The notes beneath the pieces were generated by a model that saw only the letters and a list, made by a program, of their open reading frames with translations, searched no databases and was not told where the DNA came from. From a virus (Duplodnaviria > Caudoviricetes), in the IMG/VR virus record IMGVR_UViG_3300037153_000087, positions 1-56,700 of that record: a stretch of 56,700 nt of DNA; one strand, written 5' to 3'. Position numbers and translations under genes: made by a program. Position 1 is the first letter of the stretch, and the number at the start of each line of letters is the position of its first letter. Shown piece by piece: positions 5,336-33,260 of the stretch.

Positions 5336-5354
5336 CCGCTCCCAGGAGGTGCTC

Positions 5355-6764
5355 ATGCTAGAGCGTTACACGTTGGAGCCCGTTGGCTCCTATTGGACCC
5401 GCGCTGCTCAATACGATCTGTGGCGCGAGGTCGAGATCTACGCTGCTAAGGTCAAGGGTGCGCCTGACGGCATCCTACGTGCGTTGGTCGACACCCCGGT
5501 TCCCGCAATCGAGGCGATCGAAGCCGAGGAGCGACTCGTGCGTCACGATGTGGTCGCGTTCCTGAACATGTGGCGTGAGAACATGTCGGTCGACGTCGCT
5601 GCCTGGGTCCACAAGGGTATGACCTCGTCGGACCTGGTCGACACCGCCAACGCGCTTCGGCTGGCAGCGGTCACGGACGAGATCCTCACCCAAGCGGGCA
5701 AGCTGGAGTACCTGCTGGCCAAGCACGCTATCCACCACTGGAAGACTCCGAGGGTAGCGAGAACCCACGGGCAGAACGCCCAGGCCAGTAGCTGGGGCTA
5801 TCGCGTGGCAGACTTCACGATAGCCCTGGAGCGCGTCATCAGCATACTTCGGTACGCCAGGGCAGACGCCTGCGTGGCCAAGATCTCAGGACCGGTCGGC
5901 GACTACCGAGATTCGAGTCTCGCGATGGAGGTCGCGTTCGGTCGCGACATGGGCCTCGAAGCCGCGTTCAGTGCGACCCAGGTCGTCAGTCGGGATCGGC
6001 TGGCTACCCTCATGTTCGCTCTGTCGCAGGTAGCGACCGTCATCGAAGCGATCGCCCTGGAGGTTCGACTCTCCTCGCATTCGCAGGTCGGCGAGCTGAG
6101 CGAGGGATTCGGCGAGCAGCAGGCAGGCTCGTCGGCCATGCCGCACAAACAGAACCCGATCATCAGCGAGCAGCTTACCGGCCTCGCCAAGATCGTTCGC
6201 GCCCAGGTGGTTCCGATCCAGGAGGGGGTGGCGCTCTGGCACGAGCGCGACATCTCGCATTCCTCTGTCGAGCGGATCGCCGTGCAGACGGCTACCGTCG
6301 TCACGCACTTCATGTTGGTTCGGTGCATCGAGCTGTTCCAGGGCCTGAACGTCCACACCGAGATCATGCAAGCCAACCTCGACTCTGCGCGCGACGCCAC
6401 CCTCTCCGCGAGAATCAAAGACCACCTGATTGAGGAGGGCCTGCACCCGAACACGGCGTGGGACGTCGTCCGCGAGGCTGCCTCGATCCCGCACCCCGAC
6501 CTGATCGCCAAGACCAATCAGGTCCTGCACCAGCACGGGTACGGCGTTCGGGTTCCCTACTTCAATGACGAGCCGACTCCTCACCATGAGCACGTGCTCA
6601 AGCACATGAACACGCTGCGTCGCAGGCACGAGCCGAGAACCGTCTATTTCGTCCCCCGGATGGCCGACCTCGACGGACCGACACAGGAGGAGCTGGCCAA
6701 GGGTATCAGCCTTGACGAGTTCCTGCGCGACATCCAGATGGGGGATGGCGATGGGGGGAACTGA
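5355..6764 (+). CDS. purB: Adenylosuccinate lyase (phage-encoded PurB)
   Basis: RHDVVAF, H.G.TSSD..DTA, RTHGQ, KISGPVG, GSSAMPHKQNP signature and WHERDISHSSVERI; AGGAGG RBS. Confidence 0.93.
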   Translation: MLERYTLEPVGSYWTRAAQYDLWREVEIYAAKVKGAPDGILRALVDTPVPAIEAIEAEERLVRHDVVAFLNMWRENMSVDVAAWVHKGMTSSDLVDTANALRLAAVTDEILTQAGKLEYLLAKHAIHHWKTPRVARTHGQNAQASSWGYRVADFTIALERVISILRYARADACVAKISGPVGDYRDSSLAMEVAFGRDMGLEAAFSATQVVSRDRLATLMFALSQVATVIEAIALEVRLSSHSQVGELSEGFGEQQAGSSAMPHKQNPIISEQLTGLAKIVRAQVVPIQEGVALWHERDISHSSVERIAVQTATVVTHFMLVRCIELFQGLNVHTEIMQANLDSARDATLSARIKDHLIEEGLHPNTAWDVVREAASIPHPDLIAKTNQVLHQHGYGVRVPYFNDEPTPHHEHVLKHMNTLRRRHEPRTVYFVPRMADLDGPTQEELAKGISLDEFLRDIQMGDGDGGN

Positions 6765-12326: not shown

Positions 12327-14090
12327 TCATTCCGGAGGGCTCACGAGCGGCACCAGCTCTCTGGGGTCCGGAGTGGCCAGACGGTAGGTACCCGCCTGGT
12401 CATCCCGGATGATCTCGATCCCCTTCCGGTTGCGCAGCCGCTTGATGGCGTCGTAAACCTGCTTGGTCTCCAGCCGAAGACCCGTTTCGATCTCCTGCCG
12501 AGTGACCTCGTCCCGGTGCCGGAGCAGGTTCAGAACCCGAGTGTCAACCGTCAGCGGAACGCCACCCTCCCCCCAGGGAGAACCATCAAGCCCGACCTTG
12601 TAGTCGGCCAGCCTGGCGACCTCGCTGGCCAGGTCGGAGTCACTGATGTACGGTGCCTTCCGGGGGATCGGCTTGCGGTATTCCTCGTTGCGGATCAGGT
12701 ACTCGCCAGGCCCAGCCAGCAACGTGTTGGGGTCCCAGCCCTTAGACTTCCAGTCCTGGCCGAACGCGTATTGCGCGTGGGCTGCCTCCTCCAGCCGCGT
12801 GCAGATCCGGTTCTTGTAGTTGGTCCGGCTGTCCGTGCTCCCGCCGAAGGCCGCAGCGCTGGGTGCCTGGGTCGCCTCTAGCAGGTAGACGCCGAACGCG
12901 CGATAGAGCCGCGACGCCTCCGCGTTCAGCTCCGGCAACGTCGGTAGACCGTCTACCTTCCACTTCTTCGAGGTCAGCTCGGCCATCTCGTCGACCACCA
13001 GTAGGATGTACGGGCCAAACTCCTCGTCCCAGCTCCGGATACCCTCCCGGTTCATGATCTCCGACCGCCTGTCGGTCTCCTGGTCGAGCCAGTCGAAAAC
13101 GTCGCGAGCCTGGTACCCGTCCTTGGCCAGGGTGACCATCAGCGGGCTGACCGGAGCCAGCTCCACCCCCTTCTTCATGTCGATCCCCAACACCGCCATA
13201 CCCCGCTGGACCGCAGCGAGAATGAACTGGTTGGTGATGTTCGACTTGCCGTTGCCGCTCGTCCCGAGGACCAGCGTGTGACGGTCGAGCAGCTTCACGA
13301 GCGTGGCCGCGTCGTCCTCGTCGGGACCGAGGTAGACGGGGTCGGACAGGTCTCCAGCCGTGTCGGGCACGTACGCGATGACGCTCTCGAACGTGCGCTT
13401 AGCGGTGTACTTGACGATGAGCTGGTTGTCGGCCACACCGTCTTCGAGCGCGTACTTGCCAGTCCCCGCGAGGGCACCCGCGACCCTGCCCCAGTTGAGC
13501 CGGAGCTTGGCCCGATCGAGGCCAGGAGGGCAGGCGAGAACCATGCGGTAGCCGTTCTTGATCGGCTCCACGAACACGCCCAGAAGCTCCTGCTTGAACA
13601 GCTCCCAGACCGCCGTACGGATGGCCGTCTCCTCCTGCGTGTGACCCGTCAGCATGGGCTGGTACTCGGGCGTGAGCCGCTTTTCGAGCGTGAGCAGCGC
13701 GGTTTGCGCGCGGATCTCGCCGATGGCGTAGCGCTGGAGCTTGATCTTCTTGTCGAGGTCCTTCGTGGACGAGTGGTGCTCGAACCACAACCGCATCCCG
13801 AACGCGCTGGCCGAAGCTGCCAGCCAGGCCCAGAGGCTGACCACATCGACACCGAACCAGGTCACCGCCCCCGCATAGGCGAAAGCTCCGGCAAACCCGA
13901 ATGCGACTGGCCAACCCTTCTTAAACCCGATATAGGTGGCTCCAGCCGCAGCCGCGTACCCCAACATGGCCATGCCCTCCGGATTCGGAGAGTTGATGTG
14001 CATGGCGAGACCCGCCGACAGGATGAGTGTCGACGGGCCAATGGAGTACCCGACCCTCTTCAGGGCCTGGAACCTCGCCTCTCTGGTCAC
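12327..14090 (-). CDS. FtsK/SpoIIIE-family DNA translocase, TraB-like
   Basis: N-terminal TM helices; Walker A GTSGNGKS; IDMKKGVEL; Walker B LVVDE; ATQ.P; C-terminal winged helix. Confidence 0.85.
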   Translation of the reverse strand: MTREARFQALKRVGYSIGPSTLILSAGLAMHINSPNPEGMAMLGYAAAAGATYIGFKKGWPVAFGFAGAFAYAGAVTWFGVDVVSLWAWLAASASAFGMRLWFEHHSSTKDLDKKIKLQRYAIGEIRAQTALLTLEKRLTPEYQPMLTGHTQEETAIRTAVWELFKQELLGVFVEPIKNGYRMVLACPPGLDRAKLRLNWGRVAGALAGTGKYALEDGVADNQLIVKYTAKRTFESVIAYVPDTAGDLSDPVYLGPDEDDAATLVKLLDRHTLVLGTSGNGKSNITNQFILAAVQRGMAVLGIDMKKGVELAPVSPLMVTLAKDGYQARDVFDWLDQETDRRSEIMNREGIRSWDEEFGPYILLVVDEMAELTSKKWKVDGLPTLPELNAEASRLYRAFGVYLLEATQAPSAAAFGGSTDSRTNYKNRICTRLEEAAHAQYAFGQDWKSKGWDPNTLLAGPGEYLIRNEEYRKPIPRKAPYISDSDLASEVARLADYKVGLDGSPWGEGGVPLTVDTRVLNLLRHRDEVTRQEIETGLRLETKQVYDAIKRLRNRKGIEIIRDDQAGTYRLATPDPRELVPLVSPPE

Positions 14091-21045: not shown

Positions 21046-23736
21046 ATGCTACTCTTGAGTAATCACGCGGAAGCCATTAGGAGGCTCCAAGATGAATGGG
21101 GATTCGTCCCTCTGCCCTGCGCACCAGGCGAGAAGCACCCTTACGTAAACTGGACCGACTACCGCGACACGCCACCCTCCCCCGAGGAAACAACCCTCTG
21201 GTTCGAGGACCCGGAAACTGGGGCCTGGACGATCACCGGTCCGATCAGCGGCTGGGCGGTTCTGGACACAGACAACGAGGCTGGCGAGGCCCTGTGGCGC
21301 GAGCGACTGGGCGACCTGCTCGAACAGACCGCCTGCGTCCGGACTCGGCGAGGCTACCACTACTTCTTCAAGGTGCCACACGACCGACCGTTCCCCCGAT
21401 GGACCTGGGAGCAGGACCCCGAGGCGATCGAGCGCGATGCGCACTTCGACGTGCTGGGCAACGGCTACGGCGTGATGATCCCGCCAAGCCCGTTCCCCGA
21501 TGGACCCGCCAACGACGGACGGGAAATCTATGAGTGGGTGCGGGGGCCTGAGTGCGCGCTGGACGCTCCAGCATCGTTGCGGAAGCCGTCCAAGGGCCTC
21601 CAGCGGCCTGCCCGATCAGCGGAGGCCGCGAGCGGTCGGAGCACCCTGGCTGGACTGCTGACGAATCGACCGGACGAGGGCAACCGGAACAACTGGCACA
21701 ACAAGGTCGCTGGCCACATGGCCAAGGTGATCCCGTTCGAGGACGGGTTCCTGGCGCTGGCCTCGATCGTCAACGACTCGCTCAATAACCCGATGGACGA
21801 GGGCGAGCTGCTCAAGACCTGGCGTCAAGCTTGGACCACCGAGCATGACAAGGGCAAGATGGGCAACGAGGACACCGGTTGGTTGTCGACGGACGGTAAG
21901 CGCATCTACACGGTGATTCGGGCCAAAGACGAGGAGGACCGCAACACGTACCTGCCTTACCCGTGGCTGAACGGGGACATCCGGGTCATCGGCGTTAACG
22001 AGGACGAGACCGGAGGCAGGGCGTACATGGTCGAGATCGTCCGGGAGCGTGGTGAACCGGTGCAGGACGTCGTTAAGCCGTCGATCCTGGCGACAGCAGC
22101 CGACCGCTGGCTCGGTGGGTTCGGTATGTCGGTGATGACACCGCCTGTGGGCAAGGTCGATGTGGCTGGGAGGGCTGGCACCGGGAATCGGCTGATCCGG
22201 TTCTTCGAGGCTCAGGAACCGCCGAGGTTCCGAGTCGTGCAGTGCCTGGGCTGGAACCACGAGTACCAGGTGTTCCTGACGAACACGGGCGTCATCCTTG
22301 GCGTGCCTGGGGAAGCCGAGCTGAGCAAGTTCGATGGCGTGAGGCCCAACCCCGAGATCGCAGAGAACGACCTGGTCAGTGTACGGTACGGGTTCGAGGC
22401 CAGCGAGGACGAGGCCATCGCCGTGCTGAAGGAGGTCATGCGGTTCCACTACGAGGAGTTCACGGCTGTGTTCGCGAGCTTCTGCGTGGCGAGCGTCTTG
22501 AAGGGGCAGATGGAACCGCTGACCAACGTCTGGCCGTACCCGATCGTCGAAGCACCCTCCGGCTCGTCCAAGTCGCACGGATTCATTCCAATGATCCAGC
22601 AGCTCATTGGCCGAAGGGGCAAGGCGGGCACGTTCACCAAGGCCGCTGCCCGCGACGCGCTGGGAGCCCACAGGTGTCTGCCCGAGTGGATTGACGACCC
22701 GGACGACCTTAACAACGTCAAGGAGCTGCTCCGGCTCTGCGCGTCCGAGGGAACCTCGAAGAGGAAGGGCGGCATCGACTTCCGGAAGAACATCGTCACC
22801 GAGCTGGTGTCAACGCCGATCATCACGGCGGAGTCGGTGGGGCTGCTCGACCAGAAGGCGTACATGGACCGAGCGATCGCTCTGACGCTGCGCAACCCGC
22901 AGACCCGAATGTCGCTCCACGACCCGAGCAAGCCCCAGATCGACGACATTGACGATCTGCGCTCCAAGTACGGCGGAGACCTCTCGTGCCTGGCTGGGCA
23001 CGTGGTGAGCCTCATCCTCCAGCGGCGTTCTCTGGTGACCGCCGAGCGGTTCCGGCAGTACCGTGCTGGGCACCCAGGCAGGCACGCGGACAAGTTGGCC
23101 ATCTTGAAGATGGGCGCGTTCGTGCTGGCCGACATCCTGGGTCCCGACTTCCAGTGGGTCGTCGATAACGTCGAAGCGTGGATCGCCGAACAGGAGTACG
23201 ACCCGAACGCGAACAGGCTGACGCGTCGGCTCATTCCCGACGCCATCACACTGTTGGGCGTGCACGACGTTCCCAAGCACTGGGAGGGCAACGCGCCCAG
23301 CCCCGTGCTCGTACGGAAAGACAAGGACGGGAACGAAGCGATCTGGGTCAACACTCGGCACCTGGCACTTTGGTGGTACGCGCACACGAAGGGTCGGATC
23401 GAGGAGCGGACCGACACCGAGGACGCGTTGACGCAGCAGGCCGACGCCCTAGGCATGAAGGGTCGGAAGGCTGGCGAGCAGGGCGTCGACTTCATCAAGG
23501 TCAACTATCAGTCGATCGAGGGACGACGCACCAACGCGATCTATCGGCGACTGCCGGACATGGTTTCGGAACGGCTGCTGGACGGGTTGCTGGCGGAGGA
23601 CACCCCCAGGTCACAGGGTGCCTCACGGGGGGCCTCGCGCGGAGGACGGGGGGGTCCTCAGCCCCAGAATGGCAGTAAACCAAGGTTGGATGCTGACACC
23701 GTGTCACGGATCAGAACCCAGCGGAGCACCCCCTGA
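21046..23736 (+). CDS. Bifunctional primase-polymerase with C-terminal helicase-like domain
   Basis: VLDTD, VRTRRGYHYFF and PPS prim-pol motifs; G.RN primase C-terminal; P-loop-like APSGSSKS; IDD. Confidence 0.85.
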   Translation: MLLLSNHAEAIRRLQDEWGFVPLPCAPGEKHPYVNWTDYRDTPPSPEETTLWFEDPETGAWTITGPISGWAVLDTDNEAGEALWRERLGDLLEQTACVRTRRGYHYFFKVPHDRPFPRWTWEQDPEAIERDAHFDVLGNGYGVMIPPSPFPDGPANDGREIYEWVRGPECALDAPASLRKPSKGLQRPARSAEAASGRSTLAGLLTNRPDEGNRNNWHNKVAGHMAKVIPFEDGFLALASIVNDSLNNPMDEGELLKTWRQAWTTEHDKGKMGNEDTGWLSTDGKRIYTVIRAKDEEDRNTYLPYPWLNGDIRVIGVNEDETGGRAYMVEIVRERGEPVQDVVKPSILATAADRWLGGFGMSVMTPPVGKVDVAGRAGTGNRLIRFFEAQEPPRFRVVQCLGWNHEYQVFLTNTGVILGVPGEAELSKFDGVRPNPEIAENDLVSVRYGFEASEDEAIAVLKEVMRFHYEEFTAVFASFCVASVLKGQMEPLTNVWPYPIVEAPSGSSKSHGFIPMIQQLIGRRGKAGTFTKAAARDALGAHRCLPEWIDDPDDLNNVKELLRLCASEGTSKRKGGIDFRKNIVTELVSTPIITAESVGLLDQKAYMDRAIALTLRNPQTRMSLHDPSKPQIDDIDDLRSKYGGDLSCLAGHVVSLILQRRSLVTAERFRQYRAGHPGRHADKLAILKMGAFVLADILGPDFQWVVDNVEAWIAEQEYDPNANRLTRRLIPDAITLLGVHDVPKHWEGNAPSPVLVRKDKDGNEAIWVNTRHLALWWYAHTKGRIEERTDTEDALTQQADALGMKGRKAGEQGVDFIKVNYQSIEGRRTNAIYRRLPDMVSERLLDGLLAEDTPRSQGASRGASRGGRGGPQPQNGSKPRLDADTVSRIRTQRSTP

Positions 23737-26551: not shown

Positions 26552-28591
26552 GTGAGACTGCGTGACCTGCCGGACGGCTACCCGATCGAGGTGGACACCG
26601 AGACCTCAAATCTATACGTCGACGCTGGTGGCCGAATCGCGGCGGTCAGCTTCGCGTTCCGGGTGCCAGACGCCCAAGGCGAATCCGACCCAAGCCAGCC
26701 GCTGGTCTGGAAGGCGGTATCGTTCGACCAGGGCGTCGACCACCTCCCGCTCGGGGACAAGACCCTCAACGACCGGACGATCAAGCGTCTATCGAAGTGG
26801 CCCGACTGGGCACTGGACGAGGACGCCAGGAACCTCCCCCCTGAGAAGTACGTCGAGCTGACCAAGGAGTTCAGCCGACTGCGGATCTGCTGGCACAACG
26901 CCAAGTTCGACCTGTCGATGTTCAGGGCTGGCCTCCGAGGCGAGGAGGCTGCAACGGCGATCGACCTGGAGGACAACACCTACTGGGACACCCAACTGGC
27001 GCAGAATGTGATCGACCCGCGTTGGGGAGTCGCCCTCAAGCCGACCGCTGTCCGGCTGCACCTGGGTGCCGAGCTGGGCGTCAAGGAGGGCATGGAGGAC
27101 GACGAGGCCGAGGCCCTTAAGCCGTGGCTCGGACCGAAGTCGGGCAAGAACGCCGACCCCCGGTACGACCTGGTCCCCTGGTCGATCATGGGTCCCTACG
27201 CCAAGATGGACGCTGCCCTGACGATCCTGCTCCGTGAACACCAGTGGGAGCTGCTGGCCGAGCAGTACGCGTTCGTCATGCACCACATCTCCCGCGAGAC
27301 GGACCTCATGAAGGTTCTGTATCGCATGGAGGGGCGTGGCGTCGGCTTCGACGTGCCGTTGGCGATTCAGATGCAAGAGCTGATCGAGGAGGAGCGCAAG
27401 CGCACAGCCGCCACCCTCCCCTTCGAACCGACCCCCAACAAGGCGCGCGTCTACTTCTTCGGCGACCCCCCGGACGGGCTGGGCCACGACAAGTACGACG
27501 ACAAGCTGACCGAGAAGAAGCGCGAGCCCCAGGTCGACGACGAGGTCATCAGTCGGCTGGCAGCGGAGGAGTGGGAAGGTCGGCGCATCGCGCAGATCTA
27601 CCAGCGACACGAAGCCCTGAAGAGCGCCAACGCGAAGTGGTACGGAGCCTGGCCGTACATGGCTGGGCCTGACGGCAGGCTGCGTACGAACCACAAGCAG
27701 AATGGCACCGTTAGTGGTCGGCTGAGCGTCGAGCGGATCCAGCTCCAGGCGATCCCCCAGCCGTACCAGATGCCCAAGGTGGACGGGCTGGTCGGCGTGC
27801 GCGACCTGTTCATCGAGACTGAGAAATGCTCGTGCGGGTGTGGCGTCCTGGAGATGTGGGAGTTCGACGTAAGCCAGGCCGAGATTCGGATCGCGACGGC
27901 ACGAGCCCAATGCAGGCCGATGCTCGAAGGCTTCTACCGAGGCGACGACTCGCACAGCATCGCCTGCCGACTGATGTTCGGCGCGGTGTTCGACAAGGAC
28001 GGGTTCGGGGGCAACGAGGAGGCACACCCGGACTGGGACGAGTTCCGCCAGGTGTCGAAACGCTGCAACCTGGGCATTCTGTACGGCGCAGGCGTCAAGA
28101 TCATCCGTGAGCAGATCATGAAGTTCACGGGGGTCGTCTACCCGATGCGCCAGGTGGGGATCTGGGTCAACCAGTGGAACGAAGCGTTCCCCCAGATGGG
28201 CGAGCGGCTGGAGCTGATGAGCCGGATGGCCCAGCGCCAGGGGTTCGTCAAGCTGATCAACGGCAGGCAGCGCTGGTTCAGTCCGTACGAGGACCTGCAC
28301 AAGGCGTTCAACCAGGAGGTGCAGGGGTCGCTGGCCGAGGTCATGAAGGAGATCATGATCGAGGTCGAGAACGAGTTCCCGAACGCGCTGCTCCTCCAGA
28401 TTCACGACTCGATCATCCTGCGGCTGAGCCGCTGCCAGCTCGCAGCCGGAGCGTCCGACCGCGTGAGCAAGATTATGGCCACGCGATTCGAGGAGGCGTT
28501 CGTTAGCAGGTGGAAGGACAGCGGCAAGCTGGTCCGGGTGCCGTTCCGCTCGGACGCCAAGAGGTTCGGTCGCAAGGAGGCAGCGGCGTGA
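26552..28591 (+). CDS. Family A DNA polymerase with 3'-5' exonuclease (candidate DpoZ)
   Basis: Exo DTET, HNAKFD, YA..D; SGRLS; motif A DVSQAEIR; motif B R..SK..NLGILYG; motif C IHDS. Confidence 0.93.
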   Translation: MRLRDLPDGYPIEVDTETSNLYVDAGGRIAAVSFAFRVPDAQGESDPSQPLVWKAVSFDQGVDHLPLGDKTLNDRTIKRLSKWPDWALDEDARNLPPEKYVELTKEFSRLRICWHNAKFDLSMFRAGLRGEEAATAIDLEDNTYWDTQLAQNVIDPRWGVALKPTAVRLHLGAELGVKEGMEDDEAEALKPWLGPKSGKNADPRYDLVPWSIMGPYAKMDAALTILLREHQWELLAEQYAFVMHHISRETDLMKVLYRMEGRGVGFDVPLAIQMQELIEEERKRTAATLPFEPTPNKARVYFFGDPPDGLGHDKYDDKLTEKKREPQVDDEVISRLAAEEWEGRRIAQIYQRHEALKSANAKWYGAWPYMAGPDGRLRTNHKQNGTVSGRLSVERIQLQAIPQPYQMPKVDGLVGVRDLFIETEKCSCGCGVLEMWEFDVSQAEIRIATARAQCRPMLEGFYRGDDSHSIACRLMFGAVFDKDGFGGNEEAHPDWDEFRQVSKRCNLGILYGAGVKIIREQIMKFTGVVYPMRQVGIWVNQWNEAFPQMGERLELMSRMAQRQGFVKLINGRQRWFSPYEDLHKAFNQEVQGSLAEVMKEIMIEVENEFPNALLLQIHDSIILRLSRCQLAAGASDRVSKIMATRFEEAFVSRWKDSGKLVRVPFRSDAKRFGRKEAAA

Positions 28592-30685: not shown

Positions 30686-31828
30686 ATGGGTGGTAAGATC
30701 AGCGTCGTCGTCGGCGGACAGTTCGGGTCGGAGGCCAAGGGCGCGGTTGCCGGGTTCCTCTCGTCCGACCGCAACTGGTGGACCCGTCCGGCTCGACAGA
30801 CGGTCTGCGTGAGGGTCGGTGGCCCGAACGCTGGACACACGGTCTACGGGAGCTGCCCGAGCGACTGCGACGAGGGCGGAACCCCGGCTCACGAGCTGGG
30901 TCACCCCTGGCGACTCCGCCAGATCCCGGTCGCTGCCGTCACCAACCCGGAGTCCCAGCTCCTCATCGCGGCTGGCTCCGAGGTGGACATGTCGGTCCTC
31001 CGGGAGGAGTGGCGTCAGCTCAACAGCGCGGGTTACCAGCTCAGGGGTCGGCTCAACATCGACTACAGCGCGACCCTGCTGGAGGAGCGGCACATCACGC
31101 AGGAGCAGGGCGACGGGCTCAACGGTAGGATCGGCTCGACGGCCAAGGGCATCGGAGCCGCGAGGGCAGACCGAATCTGGCGCAAGGCGAGCATCATGCG
31201 CAGCCAGTACGACGTCATGAGGGCGATGGGTATCCTGCTCGTCGACTCGACCACCATGCTGACGATGCGGCTCGAAGCGCAGAACCACGTGATCATCGAG
31301 GGCACCCAGGGCTACGGGCTGGGCCTGCACACCGAGTTCTATCCGCAGGTCACGAGCGGCAACTGCCGAGCCATCGACTTCCTGGCGCAGTGCGGCATCA
31401 GCCCCTGGTCGGCGATGGTGACCGACCTCGACGTGTGGGTGGTCGCCAGGACCTACCCGATCCGGGTCGCTGGCAACAGCGGTCCGCTGGCCGACGAGAC
31501 CTCGTGGGAAGAGCTGGGTCTGGAGCCCGAACAGACCACCGTCACCAAGAAGACTCGGCGAGTCGGCGGATGGGACGGCGAGCTGGTTCGACGCGCGGTG
31601 TGGGCGAACGGCGGAGGCTGGAACGACCATGTCAAGATCGCGCTGATGATGGCCGACTACAAGATCCCTGGGCTCAAGGGGATCCGCGACAGCAACGACA
31701 TCAACAACCAGGATTACGATGCTCTCCAGAAGCTGGTACGCGAGGTCGAGGGGCAGACCGACGCCCGTGTGGGCCTGGTCGGAACTGGCCCGACGTCCAT
31801 TCTCGATCTTCGCGGCTGGAACCTCTGA
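30686..31828 (+). CDS. purZ: N6-succino-2-amino-dAMP synthetase (PurZ/PurZ0-type PurA paralog)
   Basis: GGQFGSEAKG with Ser replacing the PurA catalytic Asp; GPNAGHT; GST.KG.G; EGTQG; PIRVAGNSGPL; TTVTKK.RRV; compact archaeal-type length. Confidence 0.88.
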   Translation: MGGKISVVVGGQFGSEAKGAVAGFLSSDRNWWTRPARQTVCVRVGGPNAGHTVYGSCPSDCDEGGTPAHELGHPWRLRQIPVAAVTNPESQLLIAAGSEVDMSVLREEWRQLNSAGYQLRGRLNIDYSATLLEERHITQEQGDGLNGRIGSTAKGIGAARADRIWRKASIMRSQYDVMRAMGILLVDSTTMLTMRLEAQNHVIIEGTQGYGLGLHTEFYPQVTSGNCRAIDFLAQCGISPWSAMVTDLDVWVVARTYPIRVAGNSGPLADETSWEELGLEPEQTTVTKKTRRVGGWDGELVRRAVWANGGGWNDHVKIALMMADYKIPGLKGIRDSNDINNQDYDALQKLVREVEGQTDARVGLVGTGPTSILDLRGWNL

Positions 31829-31926
31829 TGGGCAAGCAGGTGCAGGTCAAGAAGCAAGGCAAGAAGCCCAAGCCTGCGACCGACATCGACCGGCGCAGCC
31901 CGAGCGGCAAGGAGCACAAGAACTGA
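31828..31926 (+). CDS. 32-aa Lys-rich peptide
   Basis: TGATG-coupled on both sides. Confidence 0.5.
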   Translation: MGKQVQVKKQGKKPKPATDIDRRSPSGKEHKN

Positions 31927-32312
31927 TGAACAAGCTCAAGCGCGAGCAGCTCGCTACGGAGCTGGCCACCTGGTGGCAGCTCAAGGCGAGCGACGAGACC
32001 GACATGGTGGTCGGCAAGGCAGTCGAGTACGGAGGCGAGGGAGCGGCCATCGACCTGCTGGACATCGGCTACGCGATGGCACTCGCGATCGGTCGGGAGG
32101 TCGACGACGAGGAGGCCACCGAGCTGGGGATCTACTTCTACATGGTCGGCAAGATGGCCAGGTGGAAGGCCGCAGTGACCGAGGGCAGGCGCGTCAGCGA
32201 CGACACGATCCTCGACATCGGCATCTACTGCCGGATGGCCCAGCGTAACCGCGAAGTCGGTGGCTGGCCGTTCGGTCCGAAGCCCCCGACGACGGAGATC
32301 GTCAAGCCGTAA
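31926..32312 (+). CDS. All-alpha (MazG/DUF1599-like) nucleotide pyrophosphohydrolase
   Basis: K..EYG, E.G..F...K..R and DDT..D...Y pattern; in the purZ operon. Confidence 0.6.
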   Translation: MNKLKREQLATELATWWQLKASDETDMVVGKAVEYGGEGAAIDLLDIGYAMALAIGREVDDEEATELGIYFYMVGKMARWKAAVTEGRRVSDDTILDIGIYCRMAQRNREVGGWPFGPKPPTTEIVKP

Positions 32313-32366
32313 TCGGGTCGGGGGTCGAAAGGCCCCCACCCCTTTCATATCTAAGGAGAAACCCCC

Positions 32367-33260
32367 ATGATCGTGTACTTCGCTGAGCCGATCGACCAGG
32401 ACCAGGCCAATTACGTCGAGATCGAGTTCCGGACCACCATGCAGAACCACCTCCTGCGGACCGGTGCCAGCGTCTACCGTCCGGCAACCGCCTGGAACCT
32501 GGCGAGCATCGACCGTCACACGAGCGCGGTGGCCGAGAAGGTCAACCGAACCGCGCTGGCCGAGGCCGACCTCCTGGTCGCGCGCCTGCCCGAGGGGACC
32601 GCCAGCGTCGGCGTTCCGATGGAGATCGAGTACGCGACCCGCGTGCTGGGGATTCCCGCGATCGTGGTCGGCGTGGGAGGCGTGGCGCTCCAGGCCAACC
32701 CGATGGTCTGGCTGGTCGACGGGCGCAACATCGGCAAGTTCGACCGGATGTACGAGATGGTCGCACGCGAGAAGGCCAACGACGTCAAGCCGCTGTACCA
32801 CGTGGGCAGCCTCAACCCGAGGTCCTACCCTGGCGACGCGGGCATCGATCTGGTGGCCAACGCCGACACGGTCATCCCGGCTCACGGGACGGCGAGGGTC
32901 CCGACCGGTAACCACTTCCAGTTCCCTCAGGGAGTGTGGGGCTGGATCGTCGCGAGGTCGAGCACGTTCGAGACCTACGGCGTGCAGATCCTGCCGGGCA
33001 TCATCGACGAGGGTTACACGGGCGAGCTGTTCGCGAACGCGCTGAACGAGTCGGACCAGCCGAGGCTGATCAAGGCGGGTAGCCGACTCTGCCAGATCAT
33101 CCTGTTCGAGAACAAGACGGCGCAGTACGCGCCGATCCAGGTCGACAAGATCGAGGAGCGCGACCGAGGCAGCAACGGGTTCGGGTCGACCGGTGCCAAC
33201 GGTCATTTCCTGAGCAACGGTCCCGACTCGATCAAGGTCATGACTGGGGAAATCTCCTAA
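32367..33260 (+). CDS. Fusion of nucleoside 2-deoxyribosyltransferase/dNMP-glycosidase-like domain and trimeric dUTPase-like domain
   Basis: N-terminal VYFA.P...ADLLVA...SVG..MEI.YA; C-terminal DAGIDL, RSS, GIIDEGYTGE, R.CQ and RG.NGFGSTG. Confidence 0.85.
   Translation: MIVYFAEPIDQDQANYVEIEFRTTMQNHLLRTGASVYRPATAWNLASIDRHTSAVAEKVNRTALAEADLLVARLPEGTASVGVPMEIEYATRVLGIPAIVVGVGGVALQANPMVWLVDGRNIGKFDRMYEMVAREKANDVKPLYHVGSLNPRSYPGDAGIDLVANADTVIPAHGTARVPTGNHFQFPQGVWGWIVARSSTFETYGVQILPGIIDEGYTGELFANALNESDQPRLIKAGSRLCQIILFENKTAQYAPIQVDKIEERDRGSNGFGSTGANGHFLSNGPDSIKVMTGEIS

Follow-up and report, generated by a model that had tools for sequence, protein, structure and literature searches.

We analysed the whole of a 56,700-base stretch of DNA (hereafter the window), the IMG/VR record IMGVR_UViG_3300037153_000087, which is a single contig from an uncultivated virus with a G+C content of about 63% and an estimated completeness of 79%. 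As judged by sequence comparison, the gene at positions 32367 to 33260 on its plus strand very probably specifies a bifunctional enzyme, DmtZ-DutZ, and belongs to a phage of the PurZ0 type whose DNA contains 2-aminoadenine (Z). The 297-amino-acid (aa) product joins an N-terminal domain of the nucleoside 2-deoxyribosyltransferase (NDT) fold (aa 1-138) to a C-terminal domain of the trimeric dUTPase type (aa 143-277), and its gene starts 539 nucleotides (nt) downstream of purZ. An earlier note, made from the letters alone, had described this fusion and suggested that it channels deoxynucleoside triphosphates (dNTPs) through monophosphates (dNMPs) to free base, or exchanges bases, in place of the dATPase DatZ. 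On the two-domain fold and motif evidence its observation is correct in every part, and the route that it suggested is supported by biochemistry reported for the phages Wayne and Ghobes, by the conserved residues and by the PurZ0-type neighbour.

That biochemistry comes from Poubanne et al. (NAR 2026, PMC12884076), who expressed the NDT-Dut-like protein of Arthrobacter phage Wayne, 307 aa long, together with its counterparts from Gordonia phage Ghobes, where the two parts are separate proteins. They report that the Dut-like part, DutZ, converts dATP, dGTP and dUTP to dNMPs, and that DmtZ cleaves dAMP to adenine and can transfer deoxyribose-5-phosphate (dR5P) to the Z base. Among PurZ0-type genomes they count dutZ in 98 of 98 and dmtZ also in 85, with the two fused in 77 of those, whereas PurZ-type phages instead use DatZ plus MazZ or DUF550. 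A 2025 preprint (10.1101/2025.10.22.683976) independently links NDT and dUTPase genes to Wayne-like phages with deoxy-Z (dZ) that are without DatZ and MazZ.

The fusion gene and its N-terminal domain

The open reading frame (ORF) is a genuine gene, preceded by a ribosome-binding sequence and made up as follows:

32367..33260, plus strand: predicted dmtZ-dutZ fusion gene, 297 aa plus stop (ORF list; tblastn with Wayne DmtZ-DutZ; alignment)
32353..32358, plus strand: Shine-Dalgarno sequence AAGGAG, 8 nt before the ATG (direct sequence reading)
32367..32780, plus strand: predicted DmtZ domain, aa 1-138, with Y4, D10, P39, N60, E86 (nucleophile) and W115 (alignments, fold matches, weak PF05014 match)
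32793..33197, plus strand: predicted DutZ domain of the trimeric dUTPase fold, aa 143-277, with five motifs (PF00692, phrog_135, fold match, alignment)
33198..33257, plus strand: C-terminal tail, aa 278-297, after motif 5 (model, homologue alignment)

Searching the record by tblastn, Wayne DmtZ-DutZ covers 32373-33194 with its residues 5-305 (E 2e-36), and the two Ghobes proteins also find it (DmtZ, E 1.9e-10; DutZ, E 2.2e-17). An AlphaFold2 model built from a 34-sequence input has a mean predicted local distance difference test score (pLDDT) of 88.1 and a predicted template modelling score of 0.59, and is poorly defined only in the last 20 residues. An exhaustive VIA-align search of this model against 48,161 chains separated the two domains, with residues 143-262 leading to dUTPases and residues 1-138 to structures of the NDT family.

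At the default Pfam threshold the first 140 or so residues have no match, and at a lenient one PF05014 (Nuc_deoxyrib_tr) covers aa 3-91 (E 0.027, 15 bits); the same profile matches 30 of 34 homologues at E<=1, the best at 2.1e-5. The best non-dUTPase structural matches of aa 1-138 are NDT, MilB and RCL structures with VIA-align Z scores between 12.4 and 15.9, headed by 6evs_B (15.9; root-mean-square deviation 2.5, 127 residues aligned) and followed by 7m5h_B (15.2), MilB 4ohr_A (14.3), 7o62_A (14.3), 8rh3_A (13.7), 1s2d_A (13.3), 1f8x_A (12.7) and RCL 2khz (12.4). Five of the seven structures given for the Wayne N-terminus in PMC12884076 recur here; human DNPH1 is not among the matches listed. 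A Foldseek search of the PDB with the whole model returned dUTPases only, so that the N-terminal domain is invisible to Foldseek and its fold was recovered by the exhaustive VIA-align search. Likewise, a profile of the 34 homologues searched against PDB sequences gave dUTPases only among the best 60 of 108 matches.

Residue by residue, the domain agrees with the characterised enzymes. Written out in full, the motif G..MEI.YA of the earlier note reads G82-V-P-M-E86-I-E-Y-A90; its E86 is aligned to Glu103, the catalytic residue of Ghobes DmtZ. When the window protein is aligned with the proteins of Wayne, CristinaYang and Galactica and with Ghobes DmtZ, at identities of 33-40% to the assayed enzymes, the catalytic triad Tyr/Asn/Glu (Y6, N77 and E103 in Ghobes) corresponds to Y4, N60 and E86 and is invariant in the alignment, as are D10, P39 and W115, the last being the counterpart of the lid Trp (W124) of Ghobes. 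All six Ghobes positions highlighted in PMC12884076 (Tyr6, Asp12, Pro57, Asn77, Glu103, Trp124) are thus identical in the window protein (Y4, D10, P39, N60, E86, W115). None of the 34 homologues departs from N60 or E86, and conservation reaches 90% or more at Y4, D10 and P39, which together with the fold matches confirms the deoxyribosyltransferase domain with Tyr, Asp and nucleophile Glu described in the earlier note. The uncharged 5'-phosphate pocket modelled for Ghobes DmtZ in the same source (Val11, Gln13, Val98, Gly99) corresponds to I9, Q11, V81 and G82, with a conservative Val to Ile change.

These contacts bear on the improbable alternative that the N-terminal domain is a classical NDT, acting on deoxynucleosides (dA plus base exchange) and not on dAMP, with a functionally independent dUTPase beside it. 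True nucleoside NDTs do stand at the top of the fold matches (6evs_B, 7o62_A, 8rh3_A and 1f8x_A), and the 2025 preprint describes an NDT associated with dZ phages (NDT-M2) that prefers the dA nucleoside. Against this, the 5'-phosphate contact positions are kept; the fusion partner of the domain yields a dNMP; the closest assayed relative, the Wayne N-terminal domain, is reported to act on dAMP; and our searches of the record revealed no enzyme, such as DatZ, that would make nucleosides. A DmtZ acting on dAMP is therefore the reading that we prefer. All 34 database homologues of the N-terminal domain bear a dUTPase domain.

The dUTPase-fold domain and the C-terminal tail

PF00692 (dUTPase) covers aa 149-276 at E 5.3e-23, phrog_135 matches the C-terminal domain at E 3.3e-36, and human dUTPase 24ok_A matches residues 143-262 with a VIA-align Z score of 16.1. 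All five dUTPase motifs that the earlier note had mentioned are present: D157-A-G-I-D-L162, R197-S-S199, G211-I-I-D-E-G-Y-T-G-E220, R240-L-C-Q243 and R267-G-S-N-G-F-G-S-T-G276. They are invariant or nearly so in the 34 homologues.

Motif 2 (aa 197-200; 32955-32966, plus strand) differs between dUTPase domains linked to purZ and those that are not. It reads R-S-S-T in 60/60 purZ-linked domains and (K/R)-S-G-L in 17/18 purZ-less ones, Ser199 (60/60) facing Gly (17/18), and Y154 versus His and W191 versus Val divide the two groups in a similar way. It is possible that motif 2, Y154 and W191 are specificity markers, or that they are clade markers only, the alignment columns being confounded with phylogeny.

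Beyond motif 5 the protein ends in a tail that is absent from the Wayne, Ghobes and Galactica proteins, and of which aa 278-290 fall below a pLDDT of 50. It contains the stretch NGHFLSNGPD, and the form NGHFLxN(G/S)PD recurs in 5/34 rows of the alignment (P0001, P0002, P0004, P0005 and P0006, the window's own included).

Linkage to purZ and the other Z-pathway genes of the record

Besides the fusion gene, the record contains the following:

30686..31828, plus strand: purZ of the PurZ0 type (PF00709, phrog_1211, translation, tree)
31828..31926, plus strand: lysine-rich micro-ORF of 32 codons, a candidate gene of uncertain status (sequence reading)
31926..32312, plus strand: orf128, for a helical protein of 128 aa whose family lacks annotation and goes together with purZ0 (homologue survey, model)
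26552..28591, plus strand: family-A DNA polymerase with a 3'-5' exonuclease, candidate DpoZ-1 type (PF00476 at E 6e-31, PF01612)
5349..6764, plus strand: PurB-like adenylosuccinate lyase (PF00206 Lyase_1, E 6e-34)

The P-loop of the window PurZ, GGQFGSEAKG, has Ser in place of the catalytic Asp of PurA. In a tree of 55 PurZ rows, the window falls in a 44-row clade together with the PurZ0 of Archimedes and with Ghobes, Wayne and Galactica, supported at 99 by the Shimodaira-Hasegawa-like approximate likelihood ratio test (SH-aLRT), while the PurZ proteins of phiVC8 and S-2L lie outside this PurZ0 clade. The window PurZ shares 52% identity with that of Galactica, 44% with Archimedes, 32% with phiVC8 and 29% with S-2L. 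The adjacency of the fusion to purZ noted earlier therefore stands, with one 128-aa ORF between the two genes. At both ends of the micro-ORF, with purZ on the upstream side and orf128 on the downstream side, stop and start codons overlap as TGATG, an arrangement that suggests translational coupling of the three.

Upstream of purZ lie a PrimPol, a helicase and the family-A polymerase. Across its entire length, this polymerase shares 32% identity with those of the Korravirus phages CristinaYang and Wayne. The lyase is 46% identical to a protein of Streptomyces phage Galactica annotated as 'PurB-like adenylosuccinate lyase'; through this gene, 25 kb away from purZ, the phage itself provides for the second step of the dZ pathway.

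Elsewhere in the record we observed an FtsK/SpoIIIE-family protein (12327-14090, minus strand) and a large PrimPol-PriCT protein (21046-23736, plus strand). The host is probably actinobacterial, as these two, the 63% G+C and the closest relatives, which belong to Streptomyces and Arthrobacter phages, suggest.

Among sequenced phages, a tblastn search with the N-terminal domain returned 110 records (105 from Arthrobacter, 3 from Gordonia and 2 from Streptomyces phages), and the Arthrobacter tally is 105 for N-domain and for purZ records alike, an agreement at the level of genus tallies. In all four examples examined (CristinaYang, Galactica, Wayne and Ghobes), purZ lies one to three genes upstream. 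We then classified with profile hidden Markov models the best 80 of 545 tblastn-confirmed relatives in IMG/VR, looking for purZ within 6 kb:

N- and C-terminal domains in one frame: 20 loci, purZ homologue in 18
N- and C-terminal domains in separate frames: 29 loci, purZ homologue in 27
dUTPase only: 31 loci, purZ homologue in 13

The N-terminal domain is thus present in 49/80 loci, 45 of which have a purZ homologue within 6 kb. Of the four that do not, three (L013, L043, L082) end at a contig edge close upstream, and the record of the fourth (L074) has a PF00709 gene elsewhere. The P-loops recovered from the loci carry Ser in 50/51 cases.

Two arrangements in this survey differ from the usual one. 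In L037 (5785-7908) the order is dUTPase, NDT-like gene and a PurA-like gene whose P-loop, GGQFGDEGKG, is the one that keeps Asp; the NDT/dUTPase pair there is accordingly linked to a synthetase of the PurA type and not of the PurZ type. In L044, L055 and L059 the order is purZ, dutZ and then a separate NDT-like gene farther downstream; their PurZ proteins are about 35% identical to that of the window and form part of a clade of 7 rows that is distinct both from the 44-row PurZ0 clade and from phiVC8 and S-2L.

The distribution of the N-terminal domain also bears on a second alternative, that the protein is a common dUTPase, strictly specific for dUTP, whose task is to exclude uracil from phage DNA, its N-terminal domain being catalytically dead, regulatory or structural. 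In its favour, all five canonical motifs are present, homologues are annotated 'deoxyuridine triphosphatase' in their records, and the Wayne fusion is reported to keep full dUTPase activity. We nevertheless consider it very improbable, since the catalytic triad and Asp10 are conserved across the 34 homologues, a conservation that a dead domain would not require; moreover, the N-terminal domain occurs almost only beside purZ, and the assayed relatives are reported to hydrolyse dATP and dGTP as well.

Absence of the DatZ route from the record

As the earlier note had remarked, no HD-domain DatZ is recognisable in the 56.7-kb record, itself about 79% complete: PF01966, PF13023 and PF12917 give no match, and the DatZ proteins of S-2L and phiVC8 reach a best E of 0.12 by tblastn. 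As a positive control, PF12917 finds DatZ in phiVC8 (2.6e-15) and S-2L (3e-13); the same profile finds none in Wayne or Ghobes. Within the same record, S-2L MazZ has no tblastn counterpart and no DUF550 homologue was found, and PF04447 gives no match, in a search whose 14-genome controls were silent and which had no positive control. For DUF5664, too, PF18909 gives no match in the record, the profile having been validated on Wayne gp51 although its 14-genome controls were silent, and Wayne DUF5664 itself reaches E 0.30 at best by tblastn. DatZ and MazZ homologues occur in none of the 80 related IMG/VR loci. According to PMC12884076, Ghobes also is without DUF5664-1, a pyrophosphohydrolase of the Arthrobacter-phage subgroup, which is therefore not a defining feature of the whole PurZ0 group.

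Proposed mechanism and evidence that bears against it

The domain folds, the residue conservation, the neighbourhood and the absence of DatZ from the record are direct results, and to these we add substrates and activities that we infer from the characterised homologues. The DutZ domain would convert dATP, dGTP and dUTP to monophosphates and pyrophosphate, a step that would drain dATP and supply dGMP, the substrate of PurZ0. The DmtZ domain would then bind dAMP, with Asp10 reading the 6-amino group and thus selecting adenine over guanine, and Glu86, oriented by Tyr4 and assisted by Asn60, would displace adenine, leaving a covalent deoxyribose-5-phosphate-enzyme intermediate. Water would resolve this intermediate, for a net conversion of dAMP to adenine and dR5P; alternatively, a free Z base would do so, yielding dZMP. 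PurZ0, the PurB-like lyase of the phage and host kinases would make dZTP, which the phage family-A polymerase would incorporate. By draining dATP, supplying dGMP and releasing adenine, the fusion would perform the jobs that DatZ and MazZ have in PurZ-type phages.

The two fates of the intermediate allow a further reading, which we likewise rate as very improbable, namely that salvage is the main role and dZMP is made from free Z base with dAMP as the deoxyribose-5-phosphate donor. PMC12884076 reports that this transfer from dAMP to Z reaches some 20% in vitro, and it proposes a second way of making dZTP; hydrolysis is nevertheless dominant in vitro for the relatives, and it is hypothetical that an infected cell has anything to draw free Z base from. 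Salvage differs from the dAMP-hydrolysing DmtZ-DutZ enzyme in emphasis and is not an exclusive rival to it.

Several findings weigh against identifying the gene as a dmtZ-dutZ fusion with these activities. Its product is only about 30-40% identical to the assayed enzymes, and its own PF05014 match of 15 bits compares with a Pfam cut-off of 28.8. The assayed enzymes themselves are not uniform, since PMC12884076 reports that specificity differs between Wayne and Ghobes, that the Wayne fusion has its highest apparent kcat on dUTP, and that Ghobes DmtZ also cleaves dZMP. With the record about 79% complete, a DatZ or DUF5664 gene may lie on the missing part. The 80 loci, being the best 80 of 545 relatives, are a biased sample. 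To our knowledge there are no established residue determinants of purine acceptance by DutZ, which means that its purine activity is not readable from the sequence.

The phylogeny of the dUTPase domain, too, first spoke against this identification. In a tree built without close relatives, the window stood on a long branch beside 17 purZ-less dUTPases, a grouping that we read as a long-branch effect because it was gone once 33 fused close relatives had been added. In the resulting 118-row tree, itself a quick search over 142 columns with SH-aLRT support only, the window belongs to a 25-row clade of fused proteins (95), and a branch (98) divides the 17 purZ-less dUTPases from the other 101 rows, including the window, Wayne, Ghobes and Galactica. 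Four representatives of the 17 have no PF00709 gene anywhere in their own records, and the record of the one stray in the tree, L042, has such a gene. From the linkage of the N-terminal domain to purZ (45/49 loci) and from the trees, the wide occurrence unrelated to purZ that the earlier note had named as evidence against its proposal was not found.

The orf128 family between purZ and the fusion gene

The most novel thing that we saw near dmtZ-dutZ is orf128. Its model is a four-helix arrangement with a pLDDT of 87, and its family, which has 946 cluster representatives at E<=1e-3, occurs in 39/80 of the related loci. Of these 39, 38 also contain purZ, which is never missing where the contig extends far enough. 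The family is represented, too, in gp51 of Ghobes and in the C-terminal part of Galactica gp66. orf128 and DUF5664 occur together in 0 of 80 loci. One 491-aa homologue, P0183, has a PF00709 adenylosuccinate-synthetase domain (E 1.8e-28) followed by an orf128-family domain at aa 380-483. This single case may be a genuine fusion of PurZ with orf128 or may stem from a gene call that read through.

Searches for a known relative of the family gave little. orf128 has no Pfam match, and 10 members searched at E<=5 yielded no shared or nucleotide-related family, with scattered sub-threshold matches in three. It has no PHROG match, and its profile searched against PDB sequences was empty or at noise level. 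Comparison by hhalign gave probabilities of 0.9% for S-2L MazZ and 0.2% for Wayne DUF5664; Foldseek found nothing at E<=0.001, and the best match in a wide VIA search (Z score 6.6) covers a helical hairpin only. In the ESM Atlas it falls in unnamed viral clusters only, where DUF1599 (14% of one cluster) and DUF6378 (10%) appear as weak, unconfirmed leads. We found no mention of the family in the main-text sections of PMC12884076 covered.

We tentatively raise the possibility, which we think somewhat less probable than its opposite, that orf128 is an unrecognised component of PurZ0-type Z-DNA synthesis, either a new nucleotide-pool enzyme in the slot that Wayne-like phages fill with DUF5664-1 or a partner or regulator of PurZ0. 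Standing in for DUF5664 in most of the PurZ0-type clusters sampled, it is a more useful lead from this operon than the fusion itself.

Comparison with known systems

Since the proposed mechanism was already published in 2025-2026, the gene adds little as a discovery; it is a divergent, uncultivated member of the DmtZ-DutZ group. The closest assayed relative is Wayne DmtZ-DutZ (ALY10777.1, 307 aa), which has the same two domains in the same order, with the named catalytic and substrate residues kept. Its gene, too, is preceded by a purZ of the PurZ0 type and by the gene of a family-A polymerase, in a record without DatZ. The two proteins nevertheless share only 33% identity. The inter-domain linker is almost nil in the window (aa 139-142), whereas Wayne alignment rows have about 30 extra residues; so short a linker might allow an NDT-type assembly and the dUTPase trimer to have a common three-fold axis. 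Relative to Wayne, the window protein also has 8 residues inserted behind the nucleophile helix and 20 more in a C-terminal tail. Directly after purZ, Wayne has DUF5664 where the window has the unrelated orf128 family.

Ghobes has DmtZ (AOE44404.1) and DutZ (AOE44406.1) as two genes where the window has one, at identities of 34% and 33%, respectively. The mutated DmtZ residues (Y6, D12, P57, N77, E103) are identical in the window protein, for which the same activities would be expected, and Ghobes too has an orf128-family domain (gp51) right after purZ. A similar Z-cluster is found in Streptomyces phage Galactica, with purZ0, a helical ORF, dmtZ-dutZ, a purB-like lyase and a family-A polymerase.

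More distant comparisons separate shared fold from shared task. DNPH1/Rcl, MilB and bacterial NDTs have the same alpha/beta fold with Tyr and a Glu nucleophile (Z scores 12.4-15.9 over 121-135 residues), at only 12-18% identity to the window domain, which differs from them in being fused to a dUTPase. As PMC12884076 describes for DmtZ, the third residue of the triad is Asn in the window domain, where Asp is usual, and the transferase-type Pro is present. Canonical trimeric dUTPases (E. coli Dut, M. tuberculosis, human) share the fold and the five motifs of the C-terminal domain (Foldseek E about 5e-12, VIA Z scores up to 16.1), and purZ-less dUTPases differ from it in motif 2, with (K/R)-S-G-L (17/18) against R-S-S-T. 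DatZ, an HD/YfbR-like dATP triphosphohydrolase, and MazZ/DUF550 of S-2L and phiVC8 have the same jobs, the removal of dATP and the supply of dGMP, by unrelated folds and chemistry, DatZ yielding dA plus triphosphate.

To the DmtZ-DutZ route the window thus adds a divergent example, about 33% identical to the assayed enzyme, with a short linker and an extra tail. That the residues identified by mutagenesis hold at this distance supports their generality.

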